Assembly (NCBI GenBank): GCA_965205915.1
Contig: OZ242191.1
Location: 1,070,003-1,134,002, forward strand
Direction: 5' to 3'
Source: Dehalococcoidia bacterium
GTDB taxonomy: Bacteria; Chloroflexota; Dehalococcoidia; UBA6926
DNA: 64,000 nucleotides
Part shown: in pieces, positions 8,760 to 33,753 of the stretch
How positions within the stretch are numbered: position 1 is the stretch's first letter
Layout of the letters: each line of letters starts with the position of its first letter
The notes under the pieces: model-generated
The model's database searches: none
What the model saw: only the letters and a program-made list of their open reading frames with translations
What the model was told of the DNA's origin: nothing
Program-made: the position numbers and the translations under genes

Positions 8760-8817
8760 AAGTCGCGCTGGATTCCGTCTTTCGCCGGAATGAGGGAACG
8801 AACCCGTCGTTGGCGTA

Positions 8818-9249
8818 TTAGGCCGGATCGGGGGCGCCGAGGGGCTTCCACTGGGGGAGCATCTGGTCGCCGCGTTGTTCGAAGTAGACTTCTACGGGCA
8901 TATCGATTTCGACGTCTTCGATTTCGATGCCATTGACGTTGCCGTTCATGCGGACATCCTCATCAAGGGTGATGATGGCGTAGATGTAAGGCACGTCCTC
9001 GTTGAAAGAGGGATGGCCGGGCTGGCGCACGACGATGAAGCTGTAGATGCGGCCCTTGCCGCTGACGGTTATCCACTCGAGGTCGTCCGAGAGGCAGTTG
9101 GGATCGCGCTCACGGGGATAGAAGAATCGGTTGCCACAGGTTCGGCAGCGTTGAATGGTGAGTCGGCCCTCTTTGGTGGCCTCCCAGAACGGCTCTGTAA
9201 CCTGATCCGGATACGGAACCGGCTTGGGTATCGTCTGCCCCTCTGTCAT
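8818..9249 (-). CDS. DUF35/COG1545 Zn-ribbon plus OB-fold protein
   Basis: 143 aa. 'QRCRTCGNRFFYPRERDPNC' rubredoxin-like zinc ribbon followed by an OB-fold region. Confidence 0.65.
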   Translation of the reverse strand: MTEGQTIPKPVPYPDQVTEPFWEATKEGRLTIQRCRTCGNRFFYPRERDPNCLSDDLEWITVSGKGRIYSFIVVRQPGHPSFNEDVPYIYAIITLDEDVRMNGNVNGIEIEDVEIDMPVEVYFEQRGDQMLPQWKPLGAPDPA

Positions 9250-9376
9250 TGCCCCACTCCTCCGAACGGTTCCCCGCCCTTAGTGGGGGAACCTATACGC
9301 TTGTTCCGATACCAGCGTGTACACGATAGCACTTTTGGGGTGGGGGCGCATGGGGGCGTAGTGGTACCGTCATGGT

Positions 9377-9742
9377 ATGGACATAGCCGAGTTTGAGGGG
9401 TTGGTTGAGCAGGCGTTGGATTCGTTGCCGCCGGAGATTGAGGCGGGGTTGGACAACGTGGCGATTATCATCCAGGATTGGCCGTCGCCGGAGCAGATGG
9501 AGGACAACAACCTCCGCAGTCGTCGCGATTTGTTGGGCCTCTATGAGGGAGTGCCGTTGGTGGACCGCATCGGCTATGACATGGTCGCGCCGGACAAGAT
9601 TACTATCTTCCAGAAGGCAATTGAGTCGCTGCGGCTTGGCCCTCAGGGGACGGTCGAGGAGATTCGGAAGACTGTATTGCATGAGTTGGCGCACCACCTG
9701 GGGTTTTCGGACGATGATCTGCATGAGCTGGGGTATGGATAG
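9377..9742 (+). CDS. Zincin_1 (PF06262-like) putative minimal zinc metallopeptidase
   Basis: 121 aa. 'HELAHHLGFSDDDLHELG' HExxH motif and the conserved N-terminal 'LDNVAIIIQD' block. Confidence 0.7.
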   Translation: MDIAEFEGLVEQALDSLPPEIEAGLDNVAIIIQDWPSPEQMEDNNLRSRRDLLGLYEGVPLVDRIGYDMVAPDKITIFQKAIESLRLGPQGTVEEIRKTVLHELAHHLGFSDDDLHELGYG

Positions 9743-10685
9743 GCCGACGTTGACGACGCTAAGGCGTCGGGTGCTGGGGTGGTATCGGCAACATGGGCGG
9801 GATTTGCCGTGGCGAAAGTCATCGGACCCGTATCACGCGATGGTGGCGGAGTTCATGTTGCAGCAGACGGGGGTGGGGCGCGTGCTGTCGGTTTACGCGT
9901 CGTTTCTGGAGCGGTTCCCTACCCTTGCGGTTCTGGCTGATGCGCCGGTCTCGGACGTGATTCGGGCATGGAGCGGAATGGGTTATAACCGTCGCGCCAT
10001 CAACTTGCAGCGGGCGGCGCGGGTCATCGTGGAGGAACATGGCGGGATTATCCCGCGCGATCCGCGTGTGTTGCAGACGCTACCGGGGATCGGGCGCTAT
10101 ACGTCGTCGGCGATTGCTTGTTTTGCGTATCGGCAGCCCGTGCCCGTGATGGATACGAATATCAGGCGCGTGCTGGGCAGGGTGTTGATCGGCCACAAGG
10201 ATGTGGGCGCGGACACGGGGTGGGCGCTGGCGGAGGCGGCTGTTCCGCGAGACGGGGGGCGGGCATCGTCGTGGCATCAGGCGCTGATGGACCTGGGCGC
10301 GACGGTGTGCTCGGCACGGCGCCCTCGGTGCGATGAGTGTCCGGTGAATGAGCTGTGCGCGGCGCGGCCGCTTTTCGGCGGGGATGATTCTCCAACGATT
10401 CGCTATGCGGAGCTTGCTGATTCGACACCGCTGCTTAGAGTTGCAGAGCGTCCTCGCTCGACACAGCAGGGATGGGTCGGGACCACACGGTATTATCGCG
10501 GGCGCATTGTGGAGGTGTTACGGAACCACGCGAACGGGGCTATGGAGTTGGGTGAGTTGGGGCCGCTGGTTCGGGAGGATTACACGCCCACTGAGCATGG
10601 GGACTGGTTGCGGGGGCTTTTGGGCGGGTTGGAGCGGGATGGGTTGGTGGTGGCGCCGGGTGAGGTGGTGGGGTTGCCGGAGTGA
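9735..10685 (+). CDS. mutY: A/G-specific adenine DNA glycosylase (MutY/Nth HhH-GPD superfamily)
   Basis: The six-frame ORF 9393..10685 is a read-through; the real start is the ATG at 9735 (MDRPTLTTLRRRVLGWY). HhH 'LPGIGRYTSSAI', catalytic Asp, and a [4Fe-4S] cluster 'CSARRPRCDECPVNELC'. Confidence 0.8.
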   Translation: MDRPTLTTLRRRVLGWYRQHGRDLPWRKSSDPYHAMVAEFMLQQTGVGRVLSVYASFLERFPTLAVLADAPVSDVIRAWSGMGYNRRAINLQRAARVIVEEHGGIIPRDPRVLQTLPGIGRYTSSAIACFAYRQPVPVMDTNIRRVLGRVLIGHKDVGADTGWALAEAAVPRDGGRASSWHQALMDLGATVCSARRPRCDECPVNELCAARPLFGGDDSPTIRYAELADSTPLLRVAERPRSTQQGWVGTTRYYRGRIVEVLRNHANGAMELGELGPLVREDYTPTEHGDWLRGLLGGLERDGLVVAPGEVVGLPE

Positions 10686-10701
10686 GGGGGGGAGTATAGG
10701 C

Positions 10702-11214
10702 ATGAAACGGGACGCAAAGTTTTCCGAGGACAGAAAATACCGCTACGTCTTGGATCGCGAGTGGGATGAGTCAGGCAGCCTCGTAACATTTATCATGCTG
10801 AACCCCTCGAATGCCGACGAGGTAGTCGATGATCGAACGATCAAGAGATGTATTGCTTTTGCTAAGGAATGGGGATGCGGGCGGCTACGAGTAGTCAACT
10901 TATTTGCTCGGATAGCGACGAAACCCAATGACCTGGCAGCCATGCAGGCAAAAGGCGAGAACATTGTTGGCCTCGATACTGACGACGATATCCGCGCAGC
11001 GGTTGGGGAGGCGGAGTTGGTGGTTTGCGCTTGGGGGAACAATGTCTACCGGGTGGGAAAGGGGCAGTCGCGGGTCCAAGAGGTGTTGGCGATAATCAGG
11101 GAGCAGGGCAAGACGCCGCACACTCTAGGCCACCTGACCAAAGAGAGCCAGCCGCGTCATCCGTTATACCTGAGGGGGGATATTCAGCCGGTACTGTGGA
11201 ATTTAGTTCTTTAG
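10702..11214 (+). CDS. DUF1643-family protein
   Basis: 171 aa from the ATG at 10702. 'KYRYVLDREW...IMLNPS' is the signature start of DUF1643. Confidence 0.6.
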   Translation: MKRDAKFSEDRKYRYVLDREWDESGSLVTFIMLNPSNADEVVDDRTIKRCIAFAKEWGCGRLRVVNLFARIATKPNDLAAMQAKGENIVGLDTDDDIRAAVGEAELVVCAWGNNVYRVGKGQSRVQEVLAIIREQGKTPHTLGHLTKESQPRHPLYLRGDIQPVLWNLVL

Positions 11215-11239
11215 ATTCTTCGCTGCGCTCAGAATGACA
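11214..11239. repeat. REP family B (consensus GGATTCYTCGCTGCGCTCRGAATGACA), copy 1
   Basis: Near-identical copies at 28813..28839, 35427..35452, 41534..41560 and 52430..52456. The reverse strand translates as CHSERSEESK. Confidence 0.8.
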
Positions 11240-11442
11240 GTGGGGGGGCTTGTGGCGTTTGAAACGGGGCAGGTTGCAGCACGGCATCAGCACGTCGTTT
11301 GAGGTTGACACGCACCAGGCACTGTGCCATATTCCGCGTACCACCCCAGTGATCGCATCGCTGGGCCGACGTCCCCATAAAGGGGGCGTCTCTTTTTTTG
11401 CGCCTATGATCGAGTTTGGGGGCGGTTGTACACGGCGGGGTT

Positions 11443-11468
11443 GGATTCCCGCTTTCGCGGGAATGACG
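11443..11468. repeat. REP family A palindrome (GATTCCCGCTTTCGCGGGAATGACG), copy 1
   Basis: Hairpin CCCGC-TTTC-GCGGG. Copies at 28936..28960, 30981..31005, 52509..52533 and 62006..62030; partial copy at 30222..30241; diverged copy at 8770..8794. Confidence 0.8.
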
Positions 11469-11493
11469 TTTGACGTACGGGAAGAGTGTCGCT

Positions 11494-12147
11494 TCATGTT
11501 TGGGGCGCGCGCAGCACCTCGTAGCCGCCCTCACTGAGCCAGGTTTGGATTTTTGACTTGAGGTTGAGCCAGGGATCGCCGATTTGGGCTAGTTCTTGTT
11601 GGGTTAGCTCGGTGTAGGTTTTGGCTTTTTCGGGGAATCGCCATAGGCTTGCTAGCCAGAATCCCTCGATGCGCGATTGGGATGGCTTGCGCTGGACTAC
11701 GCCCGTTGGGCCGCTGACTTCCCATGTTTGTACGATGCGGTCTGGGTCGGCGATGGTTACTGCTTCTTGCCATGTGGCCAATCGTTGCTCGTCTGTTTGG
11801 AGGTGCTCCATCAGGGATAGCAGGTGCGTGATCCTGTCCTTGTCTGTGGCGTCATCACCGGCGGCGCGGCGGGTTAGGAGACTGTCCCAGTTGGGGCCGA
11901 GCGCGGGGATATCGATGCCGCCGTCGGAGGCGATCGCCAGACACCCGCCTATTCGCGCCCATGCGAGGGCTTTGGAATCGGCGATTTCGCGGTGGGTGTG
12001 GCCTGATTCTTCCGGCGGTTCATGCGGCGGCAATGTATCGACGGTTATGAGTTGGAATGGCCAGCCGGTCAGGCAGTCGCGGAGGCGGTGGATCTTGGCA
12101 GGATTCGTCGACGCCAGCAGGATGCTCGGCGGGGTTTCGCGCGTCAT
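11494..12147 (-). CDS. Ham1/RdgB-family non-canonical purine NTP pyrophosphatase-like protein
   Basis: The real start is the ATG at 12147 (MTRETPPSILLASTNPAKI). Blocks 'LLASTNPAKI', 'IASDGGIDIPALG' and 'TDKDRITHLL' parallel the RdgB motifs. The ATG overlaps the stop of the upstream gene (ATGA). Confidence 0.65.
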   Translation of the reverse strand: MTRETPPSILLASTNPAKIHRLRDCLTGWPFQLITVDTLPPHEPPEESGHTHREIADSKALAWARIGGCLAIASDGGIDIPALGPNWDSLLTRRAAGDDATDKDRITHLLSLMEHLQTDEQRLATWQEAVTIADPDRIVQTWEVSGPTGVVQRKPSQSRIEGFWLASLWRFPEKAKTYTELTQQELAQIGDPWLNLKSKIQTWLSEGGYEVLRAPQT

Positions 12148-16007: not shown

Positions 16008-16155
16008 GAACTGCCTGATTCTCCCTACATCCCGCTTGATTCAGTGTAGGCGCGGCGGGTGGGAGTCACAAGCGGGGGGGGGCTTAGCATAGGCGCTAGA
16101 TTGCATCGGTAGCTTGGCCGCCACATCCCACAAGGTATTGGCCTACAATAGATGC

Positions 16156-16518
16156 ATGAGCATGTTCAGGGTTGATATCAGCGTTTCAGGCGGGCCGGAT
16201 AGTGAGGCTCAGACTGTGGGAGCACTCGTCGATACCGGCACGATGCACACCGTGCTGCCGGGCAAACTGCTTCGGGACATTGGCATCAGCCCCACGCTGA
16301 CGACGGAGTTTGAGCTGGCGGACGGCAGTGTCGTTGAGTTCGAGGTGGGAACTGCGCTTGTGGCGATAAACGGGTACGACGCTGTTACACCGGTCGCGTT
16401 TGGCCCCGACGACGCTGAGCCGCTACTCGGCGCAGTTGCGCTGGAACTCATGGAATTGCTTGTCGACCCGAAGAACCGCAGACTCATCCCAACGGGTCGT
16501 GGACGCCGGCATCTGTAG
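16156..16518 (+). CDS. Retropepsin-like (clan AA) aspartic protease, paralog 1
   Basis: 'ALVDTGTMHTVLP' DTG active-site motif. About 50% identical to paralogs at 16541 and 57048. Confidence 0.6.
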   Translation: MSMFRVDISVSGGPDSEAQTVGALVDTGTMHTVLPGKLLRDIGISPTLTTEFELADGSVVEFEVGTALVAINGYDAVTPVAFGPDDAEPLLGAVALELMELLVDPKNRRLIPTGRGRRHL

Positions 16519-16540: not shown

Positions 16541-16897
16541 ATGGGACTTTTTGGCGTAGATATTCGGGTGGCCAATCCTGACGGCACCCAGGCGCGAACT
16601 GTGGACGCGCTTGTGGATACGGGGGCGTTGTACACGACTGTTCCCAGCTCCATGCTTAGGGAAATCGGCGTCGAACCCAAAGAATCCAGGGCCTTCGAGC
16701 TTGCGGATGGGTCAACAGTGGAGTATGAGGTGGGATCGGCAATTGTCTCAATCAACGGGCGTCAGGCCCTGACACCGGTTGCCTTTGGCCCGGACGACAC
16801 GGAGCCCTTGCTTGGCGCAATGGCAATGCAACAGATGGAGCTTGCCATTGACATGTCCCGCGAAATGCTCGTCAATGGGCGTAGGCTACGAATGTAG
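16541..16897 (+). CDS. Retropepsin-like (clan AA) aspartic protease, paralog 2
   Basis: 'ALVDTGALYTTVP' DTG motif. In tandem with paralog 1. Confidence 0.6.
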   Translation: MGLFGVDIRVANPDGTQARTVDALVDTGALYTTVPSSMLREIGVEPKESRAFELADGSTVEYEVGSAIVSINGRQALTPVAFGPDDTEPLLGAMAMQQMELAIDMSREMLVNGRRLRM

Positions 16898-17606: not shown

Positions 17607-18575
17607 CTAGGGGATGAGGAGGAGTTTGCCGGTGGTTTGGCGGGATTCGAGGCGGCGGTGGGCTTCGGCGGCGTCCTGTAGCGGAAATCGCTCCGAGATG
17701 CGGAGGGAGAGTTTGCCGTTGGCGATCCAGCCCAGAACATCGCTCGCGCGCCATTCGAGGTCTTCCCTGGTGACGGTGTAGTTGAAGAGGGAGGGTCTCG
17801 TCAGGTAGAGGGACTTGGCGTTGAGGGCGAGCGGAGCGATCGGCGGCACGACGCCGCTGGATTGGCCGTACATGACGAGGTAGCCGCGCAGGGCAAGGCT
17901 GGCCATCGAGCCCTCGTATGTCGTTGCGCCAACGGAGTCGTAGGCCACCTGGCAGCCCGCGCCGTCGGTGATGCGCATGACGGCTTCGTGGAAATCGTCC
18001 TGGGTGTAGAGGACGACGTGGTCTGCGCCGGCGTCTCGCGCAAGCTCCGCCTTTTCCTCCGTCGAGACGGTGGTGATGACCATCGCGCCGCGCATCTTGG
18101 CCATCTGGATGAGGAGCAGGCCGACGCCGCCCGCGCCCGCGTGGACAAGAGCCGTATCGTCGGGGCCGAGGGGATATGTGGAATGTGAGAGGTAGTGGGC
18201 GGTCATGCCCTGGAGCATGGCGGCCGCGCCCTGCTCTGCCGTGATGCCGTTCGGCAGCGTGATGAGGCGATCTGCCGGAACGACGACGCGCTCGGCGTAG
18301 GATTGGGACGCGCCGGTATAGGCGACGATATCGCCAACGGCGGGACTAGTGACGTCCGGCCCAACCTCCACGACGGTTCCCGCGCCCTCGCCGCCGAGGA
18401 TGGCGGGGAGTTGGCCGGTGCCGTAGAGGCCGGTGCGGCCATAGACGTCCATGTAGTTGATGCCGGATGCGGCGAGCTGGACGACGGCCTCGCCGGGGCC
18501 GGGGGTGGGATCGGCGACGTCCGCGTAGGTGAGAACCTCGGGGCCGCCGTATTGGGTGATCTGGACTGCTTTCAT
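17607..18575 (-). CDS. qor: NADPH:quinone oxidoreductase (zinc-type MDR superfamily)
   Basis: Start at MKAVQITQYGGPEVL. 'GAGGVGLLLIQMAK' Rossmann motif. Confidence 0.8.
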   Translation of the reverse strand: MKAVQITQYGGPEVLTYADVADPTPGPGEAVVQLAASGINYMDVYGRTGLYGTGQLPAILGGEGAGTVVEVGPDVTSPAVGDIVAYTGASQSYAERVVVPADRLITLPNGITAEQGAAAMLQGMTAHYLSHSTYPLGPDDTALVHAGAGGVGLLLIQMAKMRGAMVITTVSTEEKAELARDAGADHVVLYTQDDFHEAVMRITDGAGCQVAYDSVGATTYEGSMASLALRGYLVMYGQSSGVVPPIAPLALNAKSLYLTRPSLFNYTVTREDLEWRASDVLGWIANGKLSLRISERFPLQDAAEAHRRLESRQTTGKLLLIP

Positions 18576-18635
18576 GGGGTTGGTGCTCCTTGTGGTTGGG
18601 TTAGACGGTAAGCATCGCATAATTGGGGGTGGGGG

Positions 18636-20123
18636 TCATGGGGAGGACGCGGGATCAGTCACTTCGCAGTATGGCACGCTAGGGTTCCAATTGTAGCTCG
18701 GAAACTTCCGCCAGCTAGCAGGGGCACACCCTGTGAGCTGATTCTTTTCCAAGTAGAGTTCTTTCAAATTGGTCAAGTTACCCAATTCCGGGGGGATCTC
18801 CCCAGTAAGTTGATTATCTTCAAGTTCCAACCATTCAAGTTTGATCAAGTTGCCCAACTCTGCAGGTATTGGACCACTCAACTCGTTTTCGTGTAGGAAT
18901 AAATGGGTCAAGTTGATGAGGTTTCCCAATTCCCCTGGGATTGGACCGTTCAGCGCGTTTAGACCGAGCCATAGCCATCTCAGTTTGGTCAGAGTTCCCA
19001 GTTGCGCCGGTATCTGCCCCGTCAGTTGACCCCCGCCGAGCGACAACATTTCCAAGTTGACCAAGTTACCCAGTGCCGACGGAATCGAACCACTCACCCC
19101 TGTTCCTGAAATCCCGAGACTTTCCAAGTTGGTTAACTTTGCCAGTTCTGGCGGTATCCCACCCGTCAACAGATTTGAGCCGATGGACAGTTCTCTAAGG
19201 TTTGTCAAATTGCCCAGTTCCACAGGAATCTCACCGGTCAATTCGTTGACATAAAGAACCAATACTCTGAGGTTAGTCATGTTGCCCAGTTCCGACGGGA
19301 TTGGACCGGTCAGCTCATTGTGATTTAAGTACAGCGTTGTCAAGTTGGTCAGATCGCCTAATTCAGGTGGAATCTCTCCGCTCAATTCGTTGAAAGCCAG
19401 GGTTAGATATCTCAAGTTCTTGAGGGCACTTAGTTCTTCCGGAATCTTCCCGGACAGTTGGCCTTCAGCTAGATGCAATTCTGTGAGTTTAGTCAAGCGA
19501 CCCAATTCTGCGGGAATTTCTCCAGTTAGTTCGTTCTCACAGTGACCTATTCCAATCAGGCCGTTCAGACTGAGTAAACACGGCCTATCGCGGGGCGGCA
19601 TATCTCCCAGTCGCAACTTGGTTAGTTTCGACAATCCCGCCAGTTCAGGAGGGATCTCGCCCCGGAGCGTGTTTGATAGCAGGTTCAACTCCGTAACATG
19701 CCCCGCGTCGTTGGTGGTAACGCCATACCACTCTCCAAGAGGAGCATTGGTCAGCCAGTTACCTTTGAACCACCAGTTACGCCCATTCGTTTCGGCGTAG
19801 AGAATCTCCAGGATGATTCTCTCATCTATGGGGGTCAGCGTTGGTGTGGGGACGACTGTTGACGTTCCGGTGGGTGGCGGTGGGATTTGTGTGGGTGAGG
19901 GGGTTGCGGTGCGGGTGGGGGGCGGAGGTGTCGCCGTTGGAGAGGGGATTGGAGTTTCAGTCGGCGTTTCAGTGGGCGGAGGCGTGGGGGTTGGCAGTGG
20001 CCTGCCGCAGGCGATGAGGGCAATCGCAAAGGCGAACGCGATGGCAAGGAGCAGCGCCGTTCGTTGCGCGTTTCCACGCACGCTTTGACCCTTGATCGGT
20101 TGGTGTGCCCGAATCATGTCCAT
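18636..20123 (-). CDS. Plant-type LRR surface lipoprotein, array copy 1
   Basis: 495 aa. Lipobox 'LIACG', a Pro/Thr linker, an N-cap 'ERIILEILYAETNGRNW...NWLTNAPLGEWYGVT', about 13 LRRs 'LTGEIPxELGNLTNLxxLxL', and a C-cap 'TGCAPASWRKFPSYNWNPSVPYCEVTD'. Confidence 0.85.
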   Translation of the reverse strand: MDMIRAHQPIKGQSVRGNAQRTALLLAIAFAFAIALIACGRPLPTPTPPPTETPTETPIPSPTATPPPPTRTATPSPTQIPPPPTGTSTVVPTPTLTPIDERIILEILYAETNGRNWWFKGNWLTNAPLGEWYGVTTNDAGHVTELNLLSNTLRGEIPPELAGLSKLTKLRLGDMPPRDRPCLLSLNGLIGIGHCENELTGEIPAELGRLTKLTELHLAEGQLSGKIPEELSALKNLRYLTLAFNELSGEIPPELGDLTNLTTLYLNHNELTGPIPSELGNMTNLRVLVLYVNELTGEIPVELGNLTNLRELSIGSNLLTGGIPPELAKLTNLESLGISGTGVSGSIPSALGNLVNLEMLSLGGGQLTGQIPAQLGTLTKLRWLWLGLNALNGPIPGELGNLINLTHLFLHENELSGPIPAELGNLIKLEWLELEDNQLTGEIPPELGNLTNLKELYLEKNQLTGCAPASWRKFPSYNWNPSVPYCEVTDPASSP

Positions 20124-20214
20124 CTCGCAACGCTACTCAGTGGCGGTGTGGTGGTCAAGGATGGCGGGGGCGGCTTAGGCTGAGCGCCGCTGTCTCATTG
20201 TTGTTCAACGTTGC

Positions 20215-21651
20215 TCAGGGGGCGGGATCAGTCACTTCGCAGTATGGCACGCTAGGATGCCAATTACTAATTGGCGCCCTCCGCCAGCTAGCAGGAGCGC
20301 ACCCTGTGAGCAGATTGTTTCGGAGGTAAAGTTCTTTCAAATTGGTCAAGTTAACCAGTTCCGGGGGAATCTCGCCGCTCAATTGGTTCTTCTTGAGGTC
20401 GAGGTATTCCAAGCTGGTCAATTTGCCCAATTCAGTCGGGATTGGACCACTCAACTCATTCTCCGACAGGTTTAGACGCGTCAGGTTGACTAGGTTTCCC
20501 AATTCCTTTGGAATCTCGCCAGATATTTGGTTGTCTTGTAGCCTAAAGTCGTCGAGTCGGGTCAGAGTTGTCAGTTCCACAGGTATTTGGCCCGTCAGTT
20601 GGTTTTCGGATAGTAGGAGCGACTCCACGTTGGTCAAATTGCCCAGTTCCGATGGTATCTCTCCGGTCAACCGGTTGTAATCCAAATACAACCAGTTCAG
20701 GTTGGTCAGATTGCCTAGTTCCACCGGAATCTCTCCGCTCAACTCGTTGCTTCGGAGAACCAACCCTGTGAGATTGGTCAGGTTGCCCAGTTCCGATGGT
20801 ATCTCTCCGGTCAACTGGTTGTTTGCGAGAATCAACCATTTCAGGTTGGTCAGGTTGCCCAGTTCCGATGGTATCTCTCCGGTCAACTGGTTGTGATCCA
20901 GATACAACCAGTTCACGTTGGTCAAATTGCCCAGTTCCGATGGTATCCCTCCGGTCAACTGGTTGTTTGAGAGATACAACCAGTTCAGGTTGGTCAGGTT
21001 GCCCAGTTCCGATGGTATCTCTCCGGTCAACCGGTTATTTGCGAGAATCAACCATTTCAGGTTGGTCAGGTTGTCCAGTTCCGATGGTATCTCTCCGCTC
21101 AACTGGTTGTTTTCGAGAACCAACACTGTGAGATTGGTCAGGTTGCCCAGTTCCGATGGTATCTCTCCGGTCAACTGGTTGTCATTGAGATACAACTCCG
21201 TGAGATTGGTCAGGTTGCCCAACTCCGCCGGGATCTCGCCGTTCAGTTCATTTTCTGCCAAGAATAAAGTAGTGACGCGCCCCATGTCGTTGGTGGTAAC
21301 GCCATACCACTCTCCCAATGGGGCATCGGTCAACCAATTGTCGTTGCGTGTCCAGTTACCGCCGTCGGTCGACAAATAGAACGCCTCCAGAAAAGGCCTC
21401 TCGTCTATGGGAACCAACGTTGGAGTGGGGACGACTGTTGAGGTGACAGTCGGCGGCGGTGGTATACGTGTGGGCACGGCGGTCACTGTGGGCGGCGGTG
21501 TTGCTGTTGGCGTGGGGGTTGGGAGGGGCCTGCCGCAGGCGATGAGCGCAATCGAAAAGGCGAGCGCGATGACAAGGAGCAGCGCCACTCGTTGCGCGTT
21601 TCGACGCACGCTGTGACCTTTGATCGGTTCGTTTCTTCGAACTACATCCAT
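20215..21651 (-). CDS. Plant-type LRR surface lipoprotein, array copy 2
   Basis: 478 aa with the same architecture. The internal repeats are near-identical at the nucleotide level. Confidence 0.85.
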   Translation of the reverse strand: MDVVRRNEPIKGHSVRRNAQRVALLLVIALAFSIALIACGRPLPTPTPTATPPPTVTAVPTRIPPPPTVTSTVVPTPTLVPIDERPFLEAFYLSTDGGNWTRNDNWLTDAPLGEWYGVTTNDMGRVTTLFLAENELNGEIPAELGNLTNLTELYLNDNQLTGEIPSELGNLTNLTVLVLENNQLSGEIPSELDNLTNLKWLILANNRLTGEIPSELGNLTNLNWLYLSNNQLTGGIPSELGNLTNVNWLYLDHNQLTGEIPSELGNLTNLKWLILANNQLTGEIPSELGNLTNLTGLVLRSNELSGEIPVELGNLTNLNWLYLDYNRLTGEIPSELGNLTNVESLLLSENQLTGQIPVELTTLTRLDDFRLQDNQISGEIPKELGNLVNLTRLNLSENELSGPIPTELGKLTSLEYLDLKKNQLSGEIPPELVNLTNLKELYLRNNLLTGCAPASWRRAPISNWHPSVPYCEVTDPAP

Positions 21652-21660
21652 CCCGCAACG

Positions 21661-21866
21661 CTACTCAGCGGCGGTTTGTTGGTCAAGGATTGCGGGGAGT
21701 TGGCCGGTGCCGTAGAGGTCGGTGCGGCCGTACACGTCCATGTAGTTGATGCCGGATGCGGCGAGTTGGACGATGGCCTCGCCGGGGCCGGGGGCGGGAT
21801 CCTCGACGTCCGTGTAGGTGAGGACATCGGGCCCGCCGTATTGGGTTATTTGGACTGCTTTCATGG
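21661..21866 (-). pseudogene. Duplicated 5' fragment of qor (about the first 68 codons)
   Basis: The translation 'MKAVQITQYGGPDVLTYTDVEDPAPGPGEAIVQLAASGINYMDVYGRTDLYGTGQLPAILDQQ...' and the DNA are nearly identical to 18396..18575. Confidence 0.7.
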
Positions 21867-21967
21867 GGTTGTTGCTCCTTGGGTTGGTTGGTGGCGGGGC
21901 GGCACATTGCGCCGCTCGAAAGGCGGGATACGTCAGGTTGTAAGCATCGCATAATTGGGTGTGCGGG

Positions 21968-23755
21968 TCATGGGGCGTTCTCGCAGAATGGCAGATATAG
22001 CTTTTCGAAATCATTCGCCCTGATATTTCTCAACTCAGAGGGTATACAGCCCACAATTTGGTTTCCGCTAATTTCAAGCCACGTTAAGTTGACCAGGTCT
22101 GCGAGACGCGCTGGTATTTCTCCCGTGAACTCGTTATTGGAGAGGACCAACGATTTCAGACTGGTCAAGTTGCCCACATGTTCCGGTATTTCTCCGCTCA
22201 GCGCATTGCCTCGGAGAAACAGTGCCATGAGATTGGCCAGGTTACCCAATTCAGGTGGCAGCTCTCCGCTCAAGTCGTTGTTGGAAAGGATTAATGTTTC
22301 CAAATTGGTCAGGCGGGCAAGTTCCTTTGGTATAGCACCGCTCAAATCGTTGTGGCTAAAGGACGCCCAGGTCAAGCTGGTCAGGTTTCCTAGTTCTGGT
22401 GGTATCTCTCCGCTAAGGTCGTTCCCGCCAAGGTTCAACGACGTCAGGTTGGACAGCAAACCAAGTTCCGCCGGTATATTTCCATGAATTCGATTTCCCT
22501 CGATGCCGAGGGACTCCAGGTCATTCAGGTTTGCCAGTTGCTTCGGTATCTCTCCTGTCAGTTCGTTGAGTGAGAGACTCAGAAACACTAGATTGGCCAA
22601 CCTGTCAATTTCCGGGGAGATTTCCCCGGTCAATTGGTTCTCCGCGAGTGACAACAATTCGAGATTGGACAAGTTCAAGAGCTCATCGGGTATTTCGCCG
22701 CTCAACTGGTTTATGCTCAGATCCAGAGATCGCAAGTTGGTCATTTTCCCAAGTTCAGGCGGTATCTCACCACTCAATTGATTTGTGCTCAGATTCAATG
22801 ACTGCAAATTGGGCCAGTGCGCAAGTTCAGGCGGAATCTCACCGCTAAATTGATTGGAGCTCAGGTTCAACGATTTCAAGTTGGCCAGTCGAGTGAGTGC
22901 AACCGGTATTTCGCCACCCAATTGATTACTGTACAGCGCCAGTTCCTCTAGCTGCGTCAGCCTAGTCAGTTCCACCGGTATCGATCCTTCCAGGTTGTTA
23001 GCACCTAGCGACAGAATCGTCAAGCCGGTTAGTCTGCCAATGCTCGGCGGAATCTGTCCCTCAAAATCGTTGCCGTCCAAAAGCAGCACTCTCAAACCTG
23101 TCAGTTCGGTAAGTTCCATGGGAATGTCCCCGCTCAGCAGGTTTTGGGACAATATGAGTTCTTGCAGGTTTTCCAGGTTGGTGAATTCCCCTGGAATCTC
23201 ACCACTCAAATGGGTGAACCGGAGATACATATGAGTAAGGTTCGACAGTTGGCCCAATTCCGGTGGGATCTCTCCGCCCAAGTAGTTGTGCGAAAGCAGC
23301 AACTTTCTCAGGTTGGTTAAGCTGCCCATTTCCGGTGGGAGGGAACCAACTAACCAATTGTCACCAATGTCCACTTCTACGACGCGCCCCGTTTCGTCGG
23401 CGGTCACGCCATACCATTCTCCGAGAGGAGCGTCGGTTAGCCAGTTATCATTGCGTTTCCAGTTGTCTCCCTTGGTCGATAAGTAGAGCGCTTCAAGCAC
23501 CGGCCTATCTACAGACATAGGAATTGCCATCTGAGTGGGCGCAGGTATCGGCGTTGGCGTGGGTATCGCGGTCGATGTGGGCGCGGGTGTGGCGGTCATC
23601 GTGGGTGGGGGCGTTATCGTCGGCTCTTCATCGCCATCGCAAGCCGCAGGCAGAGCGAAGAGGCCTAGCGCGATGACAAGGAGCAGCGCCGCTCGTTGCG
23701 CGCTTCCACGCACACTGTGACCTTTGATCGGTTGGTGTGCCCGAACTATGTCCAT
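21968..23755 (-). CDS. Plant-type LRR surface lipoprotein, array copy 3
   Basis: 595 aa. Lipobox 'LPAAC', N-cap 'DRPVLEALYLSTKGDNWKRNDNWLTDAPLGEWYGVT', about 18 LRRs, and a C-cap 'GCIPSELRNIRANDFEKLYLPFC'. Confidence 0.85.
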   Translation of the reverse strand: MDIVRAHQPIKGHSVRGSAQRAALLLVIALGLFALPAACDGDEEPTITPPPTMTATPAPTSTAIPTPTPIPAPTQMAIPMSVDRPVLEALYLSTKGDNWKRNDNWLTDAPLGEWYGVTADETGRVVEVDIGDNWLVGSLPPEMGSLTNLRKLLLSHNYLGGEIPPELGQLSNLTHMYLRFTHLSGEIPGEFTNLENLQELILSQNLLSGDIPMELTELTGLRVLLLDGNDFEGQIPPSIGRLTGLTILSLGANNLEGSIPVELTRLTQLEELALYSNQLGGEIPVALTRLANLKSLNLSSNQFSGEIPPELAHWPNLQSLNLSTNQLSGEIPPELGKMTNLRSLDLSINQLSGEIPDELLNLSNLELLSLAENQLTGEISPEIDRLANLVFLSLSLNELTGEIPKQLANLNDLESLGIEGNRIHGNIPAELGLLSNLTSLNLGGNDLSGEIPPELGNLTSLTWASFSHNDLSGAIPKELARLTNLETLILSNNDLSGELPPELGNLANLMALFLRGNALSGEIPEHVGNLTSLKSLVLSNNEFTGEIPARLADLVNLTWLEISGNQIVGCIPSELRNIRANDFEKLYLPFCENAP

Positions 23756-23841
23756 CCCGCAACGCTACTCAGCGCCAGTACATATGTCAAAGACGGTGGG
23801 TGCAGAAGTATCCCGCTCGGTGGGTGAACTTGTGTCGGTGT

Positions 23842-26106: not shown

Positions 26107-26183
26107 GCCGTGCCCCCCCTGTAACGCGGCGTGGCGTGGCCGCGAGAGTTTGTCTAGTTTGAGTCTAGCGCACGGGGGCTGAA

Positions 26184-26561
26184 TCAGCCCATGTGAACGT
26201 GCTGGATGACGATATCCAAGCCTGATGCTCGGGAAAGCCGAGCGTCGACAGTCAGCAGGGGGAGGTTCCGAGCACGGGCGGCAGCAACATAAAGGGCGTC
26301 ATAGGCGCTGATGTTTTGGTAGTGCTCCCACGCCAACGGCGCAAGGATGCGATGAGATATGCGTTCAATGGGCCACAAGAGCAAAGCGCTAATGGGCAGC
26401 CGCGCTCTCGCCTCTTCCAGCTTGCCGCCCAGCACTTGTCTCCGCAACACCGACAAAACTTCCGCGTCAATCAATTCAGGCGCAGCCAACGACGCGTTGT
26501 CGATTGTGCCCGCCAAACGGCCTCTGCCGTTGACTTCCTTGGGGAATTCTTGCTGGTTCAT
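26184..26561 (-). pseudogene. N-terminally truncated vapC paralog (PIN domain lacking the first catalytic Asp)
   Basis: The last ~100 aa are nearly identical to the C-terminus of the intact VapC at 28071..28472. The N-terminus is replaced by unrelated sequence. Confidence 0.5.
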
Positions 26562-26659
26562 GGATCTCTTGACATTCGGCGATACGGCCCTGATGATCCC
26601 CTAACTTTACCATCGGCAAGGAGGCCACGACCCGTAGGGGGACGAGAGAGTCTAATTTT

Positions 26660-27787
26660 TCACTCTGAATCGAGATACGGAAGAAGGTCGGCCGGTTCCA
26701 TAGCTCTGCGTTCTACCTCTACCCGTAACTCCAATTCGCACTCTATTGGCTTCGGTAAATTGTCACCGCGAAGCTCCCCTTGCAACACTACAGTGCAAGG
26801 CTCAGTAGATCCAACAAACAGCTCATTGTCCGTCCATGCATAGTCACTCGGGCGGACATTTCCGAAGTCGATTTCAATCTCCCAGCGGTCAGTGAGTTCC
26901 CTGACCTTAATGTCTATGTCATCGGGACTACTTGCGGCCAGCCCATGTATATTGCCGAAGGGTGTTCTTGATGGGGGATTACTATACCAGTCTTTGATGA
27001 TTAGCCCTTCAGTCTTGGTGGCGTGACCGACAAAGCGCACTTGTCGAGCTGGTACATCGCTTGTGTTTTCGAGTCGCAGGCCAACCGAATTGACGAGTGC
27101 CCTCTCGGCAGCGTACAAGATCACTTCCCGCGGATAATTGTTGTTGATTAGGGGGTCTATGCTCAAAAAGGAGCGGCGCTGTTGCGGGAATATGCTATCA
27201 GCGAGTCGCGGTTCAAGGATTTGTGACCGAACGGCGTGGGGCGATGGCAGGACTTCCCTTTTTCTGTTGTCGGCCCACTGGAGCGAGAGATCAGGTGTGA
27301 GTTCGGCGGCAACCTCGGCGCCCATTTTCGCTATCTCATCAGGGTTTGCAACTCTTGTTGAGCTGCCGCCTCTTATGAAGACGTTGTTCGCACCCAATTT
27401 GCCAAACTTTTGCTTTAGGTATGTGGGGCGATGCTGTTGCGGGATTTCAATGACCCCGATAGAGACGCCCTCTATCGGAACCGCGTAGTAGGAGAAATCA
27501 ACATGGCGCTGCGTCTTACCGTTGACGAACTGTTGAAGGTTAGAATCGTCCAAGTGATCCTGAACGCCGACCACCTCACTGCGCCCACCCTTGGCCTCCT
27601 TTACTCCAATAAGGATGTACGCCGTTGTTCGTCGCCATGAATTGGCGAAGGCCAGTATGTCCTTCAGTAGCTCGGCCTTCGCACCGATATCCGCATTAGC
27701 AAAGGGATACTGTTCTGACTTGAAATCTAGGGCCGTCCCCTCAGGTTCATGCAGCAGAGACTCCAGAAACGATAAATCAATAGGCAT
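26660..27787 (-). CDS. AlbA_2/Schlafen-like (PF04326) domain protein with an unknown C-terminal domain; candidate defense gene
   Basis: 375 aa in a low-GC stretch. N-terminal 'EGTALDFKSEQY...ILAFANSWRRTTAYILIGVKEAKGG..VVGV' matches the AlbA_2 signature. Confidence 0.6.
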   Translation of the reverse strand: MPIDLSFLESLLHEPEGTALDFKSEQYPFANADIGAKAELLKDILAFANSWRRTTAYILIGVKEAKGGRSEVVGVQDHLDDSNLQQFVNGKTQRHVDFSYYAVPIEGVSIGVIEIPQQHRPTYLKQKFGKLGANNVFIRGGSSTRVANPDEIAKMGAEVAAELTPDLSLQWADNRKREVLPSPHAVRSQILEPRLADSIFPQQRRSFLSIDPLINNNYPREVILYAAERALVNSVGLRLENTSDVPARQVRFVGHATKTEGLIIKDWYSNPPSRTPFGNIHGLAASSPDDIDIKVRELTDRWEIEIDFGNVRPSDYAWTDNELFVGSTEPCTVVLQGELRGDNLPKPIECELELRVEVERRAMEPADLLPYLDSE

Positions 27788-27804
27788 CTACCTGACCTCC
27801 CCCT

Positions 27805-28074
27805 TTACCGATCCTGTGCTTGAACCTGTTCGGCGACGTCATTACCCGCCGTCAATTCCAATATCGCGGCGATGCGGCGGGCGGTGTTGTAGAAGTGTTG
27901 GACTTCATCGAGGTTGAGGGGGCGGGTTAGGATTTTGTGCTCGCGGTAGGAGAGCCATTTCTTGAGGACTTGATAGCCGCCTAGTTTGTAGTTCCAGACG
28001 ATGTTCCTGCCATGGCTCCTCGGCCATTCCTTTGAGTTCGGCTGTCCCAAGCCACACGGTAATAGCATCATCAT
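27805..28074 (-). pseudogene. C-terminal remnant resembling type IIG RM / BREX PglX-class N6-adenine methyltransferases
   Basis: 'KLGGYQVLKKWLSYREHKILTRPLNLDEVQHFYNTARRIAAILEL' recalls the conserved C-terminal block of Eco57I/PglX-family enzymes. No methyltransferase body is present upstream. Confidence 0.4.
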
Positions 28075-28472
28075 CCCATGTGAACGTGCTGCACGACGAT
28101 GCCGAGGCCGGATGCTCTTGATAGACGGCCATCGGCGGTTATTAGGGGGAGGTCCCGAGCGCGGGCGGCAGCAACGTAAAAGGCGTCATAGGCGCTGATG
28201 TTTTGGTAGTGCTCCCAGGCCAACGGCGCAAGGATTCGATGAGATATGCGTTCAATGGGCCACAAGAGCAGAACGCCAATAATTAGCCGCGCTCTTGCCT
28301 CTTCCAGCCTGCCGCCCAGCACTTCTCCCCGAAGCGTTGACAAAACTTCCGCGTCGATCAACTCGGGCGCAACCAACGACGCGTTGTCGATTATGTCGGC
28401 CACCGTTAAGCCGACGGGCGTTTTCAGGAGATACTCGACCGCCACGGACGCATCAATGACATAGTCGGTCAC
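28071..28472 (-). CDS. vapC: PIN-domain toxin VapC
   Basis: GTG start 'VTDYVIDASVAVEYLL' with the first PIN Asp. The GTG overlaps the antitoxin stop (GTGA). Confidence 0.7.
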   Translation of the reverse strand: MTDYVIDASVAVEYLLKTPVGLTVADIIDNASLVAPELIDAEVLSTLRGEVLGGRLEEARARLIIGVLLLWPIERISHRILAPLAWEHYQNISAYDAFYVAAARARDLPLITADGRLSRASGLGIVVQHVHMG

Positions 28473-28717
28473 TGCGGTTTCGCGCCGAACAACTCTGCGT
28501 CGCGCTCGGCGCGCGCTTCCGCAATCAACGTTGCCGCGTCGACGCCCAGATCCGTCGTTGGGAGTTGAGCCCAACGCTCCTGCCACTCCCGGCGCTTCAG
28601 CTCGCGCTCGACGGCGGTGAGGACGATTGCGCTCATGCTGGAGTTGTTCTCCTGCGCAAGGCGGCGAAGGCGTTTGTGGAGGTCGTCCGGTATGTTTCTT
28701 ACTTGAAGATTAGGCAT
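28469..28717 (-). CDS. vapB: Ribbon-helix-helix (CopG/FitA-like) antitoxin VapB
   Basis: 'MPNLQVRNIPDDLHKRLRRLAQENNSSMSAIV' is an RHH fold signature. Coupled to vapC. Confidence 0.65.
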   Translation of the reverse strand: MPNLQVRNIPDDLHKRLRRLAQENNSSMSAIVLTAVERELKRREWQERWAQLPTTDLGVDAATLIAEARAERDAELFGAKPQ

Positions 28718-28812
28718 GTAGTGAAGATAGCATGAAGTCTTCATGAAGCCAAGATGATTGGTGCATGACGCGGGTTTGGCGGGGATGAGTGCGACGGCGC
28801 AATGGAGGCTTT

Positions 28813-28960
28813 GGATTCTTCGCTGCGCTCAGAATGACATGTTGAGGGGCGGGAACGGCATGCGGACTGAGTCAGGAGGACATGCCGATTGTGATGGGTT
28901 GGCGTTTTTAGGGTTGGTTGGGGAATGGAGGTTAAGATTCCCGCGTTCGCGGGAATGACG
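28813..28960. repeat. Composite REP element (family B ... conserved spacer ... family A)
   Basis: B at 28813..28839 and A at 28936..28960. The spacer 'GGTTGGCGTT..GGGTTGGTTGGGGAATGGAG' is shared with the composite at 52430..52533. Confidence 0.75.
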
Positions 28961-29125
28961 GAGTGGGGGCGGGAATGACGGTGGGGGCGGGGGAGCGCGG
29001 CGGCTTGCGGGGGGGCGGGCAAAAGGGGCAACATGGGCGGGCGGTGGGCCATCGTCGGCGATGGTCGTCGCGGGCGGGTTAGCTGCATGAGCGGCGGGAG
29101 AGCAAATTTAGTTTGGGGGGATTTC

Positions 29126-32532: not shown

Positions 32533-33753
32533 TCAACCCTGAGACGGCGACGGCTCGCAGTAGGGCAGATTGAGGGCAGAGAGGTCGTTGATGGCCACGC
32601 CCCGGAGCGCCAGCGGGATGCAGCCGGTGAAGTTGTTGCCCGAAAGGGACAGGGTATTTAGCATGGCGAGATTGCCCACTGCGGGGAGTATTGTGCCCGT
32701 CAGGCTGTTGTCTGAGAGCCGGAATTCCTGAAGATTTGACCACTGTGCGAGCCCCCTCAACATCTCCCCGGTCAAGGCGTTGTGGCTTAGATCCAGGTGC
32801 GTCAGAGCGGAGAGGTACCGCAGCTGGATGGACATAAATCCCATCAGGCGTCGATTGGGCAACAGGAGCCTTGTAATTCGCTGTGGGGTCCCCTCCATCG
32901 TCACCCCTTCCCAACTTGTAATAGGGGTGTCCAGACTCCAGTTGAGGACCTCCGCGCCCCCAAGGTAGTCTTTCACGGTGAGCAGGTATATGCAGTCACG
33001 CATGAGGCCGGGATTGTCGGCCTCATGCGGTATTGCGCGGGCGCACGGCGCTTCGATGATGTTGGGTTCGCCGTAGCCGGAGTACGTGTACTCCACAACG
33101 CGAATTTCAGTATTAGACGAGCCGTCGTATCCCGGTGGAAAAAACGTTCTGCGGCCCCGAATTGGCCACCCTGCGGAATCGGCCCAGTACTCGACCCGCG
33201 TGGCTCCCTCTTGTTCAGACAGGAATCTTTCGGACACATAGTGCGGCTCATCAGATGAGCCGGAGGCTGCTTCTTCGACGCTGCTCGGGTCCAGACATAT
33301 CGGTCGGGTGAACAACTGACGAACGTTGGTATGAACACCCCATTCGCCGTAGACCTCGGGTTTGCCCGGCGCGCTTTCCCGGGAGTAATACGTGTCGTCC
33401 TTAAATATGTGTTCGTCCTTGCCCAATAGGACGCCTTCGGGGTCGCTAAACGTCGTCAGGAAGTGCTCGTCGCTCCCCGAGTATCGAAACTCTGCTTTCA
33501 ATCCCGTGAATAGCGCCGCTCCTGTCACCATGGCGTCAAACGGTGTGTATATCAGATTGCAGGCCACTCCCGCAATTGCCGGGGCAGAGGTTGGCGTGGG
33601 CGTGGATACCGCGGTAGGCGTAGGGTCAGTGACTGGCCTGAGTGTCGGCGTGGGGCTAGAAGGCGGCACAGGTTCGGGCGCAGCTGTGCCGCAGCCGGTG
33701 AGCAGGAGAAGCGCTGCAAGTAGGACGAGGATTGGTGGCGCGTGCCTGAGCAT
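32533..33753 (-). CDS. Lipoprotein with an unknown N-terminal domain and a C-terminal plant-type LRR module with an LRRNT-like cap
   Basis: Lipobox 'LLLTGC'. 'DNPGLMRDCIYLLTVKDYLGGAEVLNWSLDTPITSWEGVTMEG' then 4 LRRs, ending '...LNLPYCEPSP'. Confidence 0.75.
   Translation of the reverse strand: MLRHAPPILVLLAALLLLTGCGTAAPEPVPPSSPTPTLRPVTDPTPTAVSTPTPTSAPAIAGVACNLIYTPFDAMVTGAALFTGLKAEFRYSGSDEHFLTTFSDPEGVLLGKDEHIFKDDTYYSRESAPGKPEVYGEWGVHTNVRQLFTRPICLDPSSVEEAASGSSDEPHYVSERFLSEQEGATRVEYWADSAGWPIRGRRTFFPPGYDGSSNTEIRVVEYTYSGYGEPNIIEAPCARAIPHEADNPGLMRDCIYLLTVKDYLGGAEVLNWSLDTPITSWEGVTMEGTPQRITRLLLPNRRLMGFMSIQLRYLSALTHLDLSHNALTGEMLRGLAQWSNLQEFRLSDNSLTGTILPAVGNLAMLNTLSLSGNNFTGCIPLALRGVAINDLSALNLPYCEPSPSQG

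Follow-up and report, generated by a model that had tools for sequence, protein, structure and literature searches.

The central eight leucine-rich repeats (LRRs) of g2, a gene for a probable surface lipoprotein, quite probably form a concertedly evolving block in which changes of unit number are rare and heritable. The gene lies in the window, by which we mean the whole stretch of 64,000 nucleotides of Dehalococcoidia DNA that was analysed. Tandem duplication of blocks of one to three units would have given rise to the array, and short-tract conversion would maintain the likeness between units. In each unit the 45 nt that encode the scaffold would be homogenised in this way, while the 27 nt that encode the concave face stay different and hold most of the amino-acid differences. 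Occasional in-register unequal recombination may shift the unit number, with 8- and 16-unit alleles in related lineages as the outcome, and the contrast between 8 and 16 units would be an inherited, slowly changing difference between alleles rather than a switch that operates at high frequency.

Results

The g2 coding sequence (20215..21651, minus strand, as are all features below that are given with a strand) encodes 478 aa with 14 LRRs of 24 aa each, as established from the open reading frame list and translation, Pfam, and an AF2 model. Its N-terminal signal or anchor region (aa 1-39, 21535..21651, minus), read by eye, consists of a basic n-region and a hydrophobic stretch, and ends in a lipobox-like LIAC at aa 36-39 (Cys39) followed by G; the AF2 model has a helix at 14-38. 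Next come a Pro/Thr-rich linker (aa 40-82, 21406..21534, minus), which is disordered in the model, and an N-cap (aa 83-125, 21277..21405, minus) with the family motif NWLTDAPLGEWYGVT, conserved across g1, g2, and g3. The repeats begin with the diverged LRR1 (aa 126-149, 21205..21276, minus), continue with the homogenised array of 8 x 72 bp (LRR2-9, aa 150-341, 20629..21204, minus), delimited by TRF, an identity matrix, and pS, and close with the diverged LRR10-14 and a Cys-containing C-cap (TGC...PYCE; 20215..20628, minus), a stretch that shows 35-69% nt identity to the array units.

All Pfam matches of g2 are to LRR families (LRR_1, LRR_4, LRR_8, and LRR_14) and lie above the cut-off, with 163 bits for LRR_1 (cut-off 20.6) and 125 bits for LRR_8 (cut-off 27); the LRRNT_2 family of Pfam gave no match in g2. 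The 14 units fit, in register, the 24-residue LxxLxLxxNxLxGxIPxxLGxLxx class (plant-specific LRR). The AF2 model has a mean pLDDT of 88, its residues 85-450 form a solenoid at a pLDDT of at least 96, and each unit contributes one beta strand at unit positions 3-5. The protein is thus predicted to be a curved solenoid with the beta strands on the concave side, and the closest solved structures are the plant LRR receptor-kinase ectodomains GSO1, FLS2, and PEPR1, with E values down to 5e-158. The lipobox recognised by eye suggests that the product is probably a membrane-anchored surface protein, namely a lipoprotein, and it may have a ligand- or host-binding role.

A single array was reported by TRF at 20629-21221 (period 72, 8.2 copies, 82% matches, score 755), together with a period of 216. 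This result and the division of g2 into 24-codon LRRs agree with the original prediction of a 72-bp period with one LRR per unit. The prediction had counted nine near-identical units, and we find eight: the supposed ninth copy, with a start at 21206, is LRR1, which is 58-65% identical in nucleotide sequence to the array units. LRR10 (20557-20628), which the predicted range also included, is 50-58% identical to them. Pairwise nucleotide identity among the eight array units, taken from the same 24-codon division, is 69-96% with a mean of 83%; the most divergent pairs differ at 22/72 positions, and the pair of units 198/270 at only 3. The term near-identical is therefore apt for some pairs and, in all units but one, for the 45 nt at the 3' end; for the array overall, with its 69-96%, it is not. 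The remaining LRRs of g1, g2, and g3 average 50-52% identity (maximum 78%), so the predicted excess of likeness within the array survives the comparison of 83% with about 51%. Array units are 47-78% alike to units of g1, with no raised diagonal in the core, and the core units of g2 are closer to each other than to the g1 units at corresponding positions. Within the array there are exact in-register runs of 42-57 nt, so that a substrate for recombination exists.

At synonymous sites the eight units differ with a pS of 0.23, compared with 0.72-0.81 for the rest of the LRRs. Certain residues have one fixed or nearly fixed codon in the array (GGA in 8/8 units, TTG in 8/8, ATA in 7/8, and CCA in 7/8) where the other LRRs use mixed codons for the same residues. 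The low pS argues that the likeness of the units stems from recent shared ancestry and not from protein constraint, and the claim that they are more alike than the protein requires is borne out by both observations. The likeness is unevenly distributed within the unit. In the tails (the last 45 nt, xLxGxIPxxLGxLxN, scaffold), seven of the eight units share 91-100% identity. The heads (the 27 nt at the start, LxxLxLxxN) share 52-96% and are of a few types, with a pS of 0.185 in tails versus 0.32 in heads. Both from what is established of LRR structure and in the AF2 model, positions 2, 3, 5, 7, and 8 point to the concave side. The pN/pS ratio at these positions is 1.42, a value that involves few synonymous sites and non-independent pairs and is suggestive only, as against 0.17 for the core Leu/Asn and 0.34 for positions 10-24. 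Judged on the structural model, the differences between array units are concentrated on the predicted concave beta-strand face.

The period of 216 bp corresponds to three units, and pairs of units at this distance are 96% (198/270), 92% (246/318), and only 75% (222/294) identical. The last value implies that the history of the array is mosaic, and a simple 3-unit duplication model, which we considered, fits the array only in part.

Haplotypes of the locus were collected through exact look-ups with g3, a spacer ORF of 67 aa, and a flanking gene of 233 aa. The sample comprised 10 contigs from three ENA assemblies (ERZ25068966, ERZ25069191, and ERZ25074053) and, with the window, 11 haplotypes. 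By their naming the contigs look like long-read metagenome contigs, and they are consensus sequences, in which minor within-sample length variants would not appear. Exact look-ups of g2, g1, ADH, a 180-aa ORF, a 118-aa retropepsin-like ORF, and Ham1 returned no match; that of DUF6295 returned one contig, which ends short of the LRR cluster. The flanks of the 10 contigs are 92.5-97% identical to the window. Eight units were found in 9/10 contigs, and with the window in 10/11 haplotypes; in each of the nine contigs the N-cap and LRR10 anchors lie 648 nt apart, and TRF gives 8.2 copies. This anchor screen required 80% anchor coverage, and the exception, L110, came instead from a TRF pass over the haplotypes.

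Alignment of the ten g2 genes with eight units revealed 43 segregating sites in the array (7.5%), compared with 2.4% in the C-terminal LRRs, and no array indel, the array measuring 576 nt in each. Indels in g2 are confined to aa 1-52 (the start and the Pro/Thr linker); one is a 1-nt frameshift in a single contig, and in L100 the linker has lost 4 aa (PTPT). Of the parts of g2, the linker alone is polymorphic in length across the 8-unit haplotypes. Since 43 substitutions stand against no array indel despite the available substrate, gain and loss of units must be rarer here than substitution or conversion.

Of the 43 sites that segregate in the array, 31 have as their minor allele the base that prevails in another unit at the corresponding position, where 14 such sites are expected given the bases available at each site; the test assumes independent sites, and several SNPs share tracts. 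Among the first four haplotypes, 11/17 sites were templated in this sense. The changes are also clustered, with eight in unit 318 of L100 as an example. Conversion between units is the likeliest homogenising process that these patterns suggest. In the templated-SNP test, selection acting in parallel on the same residues could give the appearance of conversion. The original prediction of recent expansion or gene conversion is supported by the pS of 0.23, the fixed codons, and the templated polymorphisms.

Comparison between haplotypes gave pS values of 0.06-0.16 for MoCoBD, 0-0.06 for the g2 array, and 0-0.01 for the g2 C-terminus, and g3 shows zero differences between the haplotypes compared. 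The low values of g3 and g2 relative to MoCoBD indicate that the g3-g2 block is younger than the strain backgrounds, so that the ten 8-unit haplotypes are not long independent trials and the test of a uniform number over the long term is weakened. The unit-to-unit pS of 0.23 exceeds all of these between-haplotype values, which places the origin of the array before the spread of the allele.

The exceptional haplotype, L110 (ctg449026), has flanks that are 94.0% identical to the window and, in the interval, one LRR gene of 682 aa for which TRF reports 18.3 copies. In protein sequence, its Pro/Thr linker and N-cap hardly differ from those of g2, and its LRR1 and first array unit show 100% nt identity to g2; on these grounds we regard the gene as a g2 allele. 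It carries 16 units of the g2 type, then five diverged LRRs and a different C-cap, and several of its units have matches at 96-100% among those of the window. In the second half of its array the units follow the order of the window, and the first half is a rearranged extra block. Its junction units include a fusion of a 270 head with a 294 tail, a truncated unit of 21 residues, and a chimeric head (LNWLYL+NDN), all of which look like footprints of in-register unequal recombination. The 16 units with their recombinant junctions mean that unit number has changed in this lineage group. L110 also differs in structure, with only one gene and another C-terminus, and is not a pure copy-number variant. 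The proposal that recombination can alter the length of the ectodomain finds support in one allele, with 16 units against 8; elsewhere the number is constantly 8.

Two paralogs adjoin g2. The 495-aa g1 (18636..20123, minus) is collinear with it: both have the same 14 LRRs, the LRR region contains only a 6-nt gap, the C-terminal parts are likewise collinear, and only the core of g2 is homogenised. In other haplotypes, the LRR body of g1 is swapped for unrelated LRR cassettes. The 595-aa g3 (21968..23755, minus), with about 19 LRRs, is identical in four haplotypes aligned in full. All three genes share a common plan of a LIAC-G N-terminus, Pro/Thr linker, N-cap, 24-residue LRRs, and Cys C-cap. 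The g3-g2 spacer holds a relic of an ADH 5' end (21667..21891, minus; BLASTP 81% over 77 aa) that matches the N-terminus of the downstream ADH at 17607-18620, from which it follows that the cluster expanded through a segmental duplication that cut into the ADH gene, with the relic marking its edge. The genes around the LRR cluster are bacterial: UvrA, ADH, and MoCoBD (molybdopterin-cofactor-binding, xanthine-dehydrogenase-type).

A protein database search with g2 returned relatives of at most 62% identity and no ortholog, and a metagenome scan returned no relative above 57%. The N-cap motif retrieved 307 related stretches in genome collections; a scan for it with one genome kept per species gave 78 loci, among which the best identity is 61%. 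Nearly all are metagenome-assembled genomes (MAGs) of Dehalococcoidia, Longimicrobiales/Palauibacter, Latescibacterota, Rhodothermales, and similar groups, and the same motif occurs in Caldilineaceae MAGs as well. According to a literature search, Palauibacter is a cosmopolitan marine group with some sponge members. The loci nearest to g2 are Dehalococcoidia MAGs. TRF arrays of at least 6 copies at 80% or more are present in 27/78 loci, of which 18 equal or exceed g2 in size and uniformity. Homogenised 72-bp arrays are thus common in the family, and they look like stable gene features across species. Four of the Dehalococcoidia loci (L001, L005, L012, and L049) are syntenic with the window, with flanking proteins 85-89% identical, and carry a single LRR gene between MoCoBD and ADH, against three in the window. 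The sister species L005 has in its syntenic gene a distinct homogenised block of its own (LETLxLxxNELSGEIPSELGNLIN, 81-93%), which shows that such blocks arise repeatedly and independently.

Discussion

Three observations together point to concerted evolution of the g2 core: its units are closer within the gene than to the paralog, its polymorphisms look templated by sister units, and recombinant junction units exist. The strongest rival, which we nevertheless consider improbable, would have the array consist of young duplicates that diverge with no ongoing conversion, the templating being due to parallel mutation or selection. The pS of 0.23 would fit one burst of duplication that preceded the radiation of the haplotypes, and the polymorphic sites do gather where units also differ. 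However, the excess of templated sites is counted against an expectation already conditioned on the site, the changes occur in clusters such as that in L100, and the tails are more alike than the heads even at synonymous sites. The comparison with g1 also stands against simple duplication, because the two genes have the same number of LRRs and only the g2 core is homogenised, which fits homogenisation without net change in number.

It is still less likely that g2 is a contingency locus, with a hypermutable array whose LRR number is often changed by slippage or recombination to yield mixed ectodomain lengths. Such a locus was the original prediction, and the exact in-register runs and the 8- and 16-unit alleles of related lineages both speak for it. 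Its defining feature is variation in number among close relatives, and this was tested and found absent in the ten 8-unit haplotypes, so that the analogy is unsupported: haplotypes from three samples have exactly eight units in 10 of 11 cases, with many substitutions and no array indel, and the sole other length belongs to a structurally different haplotype with flanks of 94% identity. A unit identity of 83% rather than about 100% would also lower slippage, and the arrays of the family look stable across species.

The remaining two explanations are very improbable. That the units lack recent shared ancestry and are alike through protein constraint and codon bias on an idealised LRR agrees with a consensus, NQLTGEIPSELGNLTN, that lies near the family consensus, but is refuted at synonymous sites, where pS is 3-4 times below that of other LRRs of the same genes and those LRRs use mixed codons. 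Tandem repeats are a classic source of misassembly, but collapse or inflation of the array by the assembler is rejected because nine other contigs from the three ENA assemblies have the same eight units and keep the unit-specific differences, and because the array is only 576 bp long, with units distinct enough for unique placement.

Taken as a concertedly evolving block, the g2 array is an ordinary product of LRR gene growth, and follow-up of it as a contingency locus can be spared. The eleven haplotypes offer a clean population-level example of a bacterial eukaryotic-like LRR protein in the course of diversifying, the pattern being a uniform scaffold through copying between units, a diverse presumed binding face, and rare change in length. 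The larger variation at the locus comes from swaps of whole LRR genes next door. If these proteins do mediate host recognition, as has been proposed in the literature, the cluster would be a promising region in which to seek interactions with the host that are specific to strains.

A wider reading, which we offer tentatively and hold to be possible rather than probable, is that the MoCoBD-ADH interval is a strain-variable recognition locus of a host-associated Dehalococcoidia population, in which new specificities of LRR surface proteins would arise in a manner akin to fungal het/NLR genes or plant R-gene clusters. Under this reading, conversion and unequal crossing-over would reshuffle homogenised LRR units (8 versus 16), whole LRR bodies would be swapped in the g1 slot, where there are at least 4 unrelated alleles, and LRR genes would be gained and lost, with 1 to 3 per haplotype. 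Favoured alleles might then sweep across diverged backgrounds, as g3 is identical where the neighbouring gene differs by 4%.

Simple-sequence contingency loci, as described by Moxon and colleagues, are perfect repeats of 1-8 nt that shift the reading frame and vary in clonal populations. Like them, g2 has repeats within the gene for a probable surface protein, and a change in length would alter the product. Unlike them, it has in-frame units of 72 nt that are 83% alike and of which ten haplotypes carry the same number.

In sequence, g2 resembles the plant LRR ectodomains (GSO1, FLS2, PEPR1, and TDR), with which it shares the 24-residue repeat, an N-cap with W..GV, and a Cys C-cap. It differs from the plant receptors in that it has neither a C-terminal transmembrane helix nor a kinase and would be anchored by an N-terminal lipobox-like signal and a Pro/Thr linker, and its N-cap is without the Cys pair of the plant ectodomains. 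The bin names SB066x and RHO and their lineages we take to be members of sponge microbiomes, which is a lead only. LRR genes have been reported in Chloroflexi of sponges (SAR202 and Caldilineae), for which a role in host interaction was proposed (Bayer et al. 2018, PMC6306507). As in these eukaryotic-like proteins, eukaryote-type LRRs are found in g2 within a bacterial genome, and the nearest genomes are Dehalococcoidia MAGs; members of the sponge class have a proposed function only, and the sponge link of the g2 locus is one that we infer.

With regard to the mode of evolution, the repeats of the fungal NLR genes het-d and het-e (HNWD) evolve in concert through intragenic exchange and vary in number (Paoletti et al. 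2007, PMC1805685). The g2 units are similarly alike at the nucleotide level, appear to be exchanged within the gene, differ at few surface positions, and occur in length alleles, although they are LRRs and not WD40 repeats, the host is a bacterium, and 10/11 haplotypes share one unit number. A report on Yersinia YopM (PMC4161239) describes isoforms whose LRR number differs from strain to strain between conserved ends, and g2 is likewise a bacterial LRR protein with length alleles around conserved ends. YopM differs from g2 in being a type III secreted effector with 20/22-residue LRRs that is unanchored and has no plant-type repeat. By kind, the eukaryotic-like LRR proteins of sponge Chloroflexi are the closest to g2, and by sequence the plant LRR ectodomains; by mode of evolution, and by analogy, the closest would be the fungal het/NLR repeats and the YopM isoforms.

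Discussion

The slot occupied by g1, the LRR gene next to the ADH gene, is hypervariable across haplotypes whose flanks are 92.5–97% identical. Comparison of the haplotypes shows that the genes in this slot keep their N-terminus while the LRR body and C-cap have been swapped, giving at least four unrelated versions. The LRR body of g1 lies at 18636–19700 in the window, and the stretches compared with it in the related haplotype contigs are 7252–8490 in L099, 13621–14949 in L100, 11742–13052 in L101, and 2940–4529 in L106. The versions include one of 495 aa (C-terminal end ...PYCEVTDPASSP), one of 397–412 aa (...LALPFC), one of 436–438 aa (...ARLALPFCK), and one of 529–532 aa (...GTLTFC), and several copies in the slot carry disruptive frameshifts or stop codons.

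Four haplotypes were aligned in full; across them, no differences were found in the paralog g3 and its upstream spacer, and two were found in the g3-g2 spacer. This block, consisting of g3 and both spacers (21652–23841), adjoins the molybdopterin-cofactor-binding (MoCoBD) gene, in which 4%–4.5% of sites differ (pS 0.06–0.16). The contrast between a near-invariant block and its diverged neighbor suggests a recent gene-specific sweep or a transfer across strain backgrounds. Further upstream of MoCoBD lies a variable island (26183–29057) that encodes two PIN-domain ORFs (26184–26561 and 28071–28586) and a Schlafen/AlbA_2 gene (26660–27787). The content of the island differs in other haplotypes, which have other small-ORF sets, FitA-like/PIN pairs, or an FRG/TPR gene, and haplotype identity across it falls to 81%–92% or is lost.

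The interval from MoCoBD to the ADH gene holds between one and three LRR genes, depending on the haplotype or species. Where the window carries three (18636–23755), contig ctg424430 (L106) is without g3 and ctg449026 (L110) has one gene of 682 aa; the sister-species MAGs L001, L005, L012, and L049 likewise have one each. Within the g3-g2 spacer (21667–21891, minus strand) sits a remnant of the ADH N-terminus that is 77 aa long, has 81% identity, and takes in part of the ADH leader; it marks the edge of the segmental duplication behind this multiplication of LRR genes. In L049, a short ADH fragment also adjoins the LRR gene.

A fourth related, lipoprotein-like gene of 406 aa is located at 32533–33753 on the minus strand. 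It encodes a signal with an LLTGCG end, a Pro/Thr linker, and an unassigned domain of about 200 aa, followed by an N-cap-like stretch, three LRRs, and a C-cap (TGCIP...LPYCE) of the type common to the related LRR genes.

Long plus-strand ORFs antisense to the 72-bp repeat array of g2 (20342–20680, 20796–21131, and 20918–21379) give no indication of being genes and most likely reflect nothing more than the repetitive sequence. Elsewhere on the plus strand, two neighboring small ORFs (16114–16518 and 16541–16897), situated between UvrA and a 180-aa ORF, match retropepsin-like aspartyl protease families (gag-asp_proteas and Asp_protease_2), and one or both are kept in the haplotypes spanning them.

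In three other Dehalococcoidia MAGs (L002, L004, and L008; around locus position 8800–11600), the flanks of the loci are 97%–99% identical, and from the LRR gene onward identity drops to about 83%, a level that reflects only the likeness among repeats. LRR genes therefore turn over rapidly among close relatives outside the lineage of the window as well.
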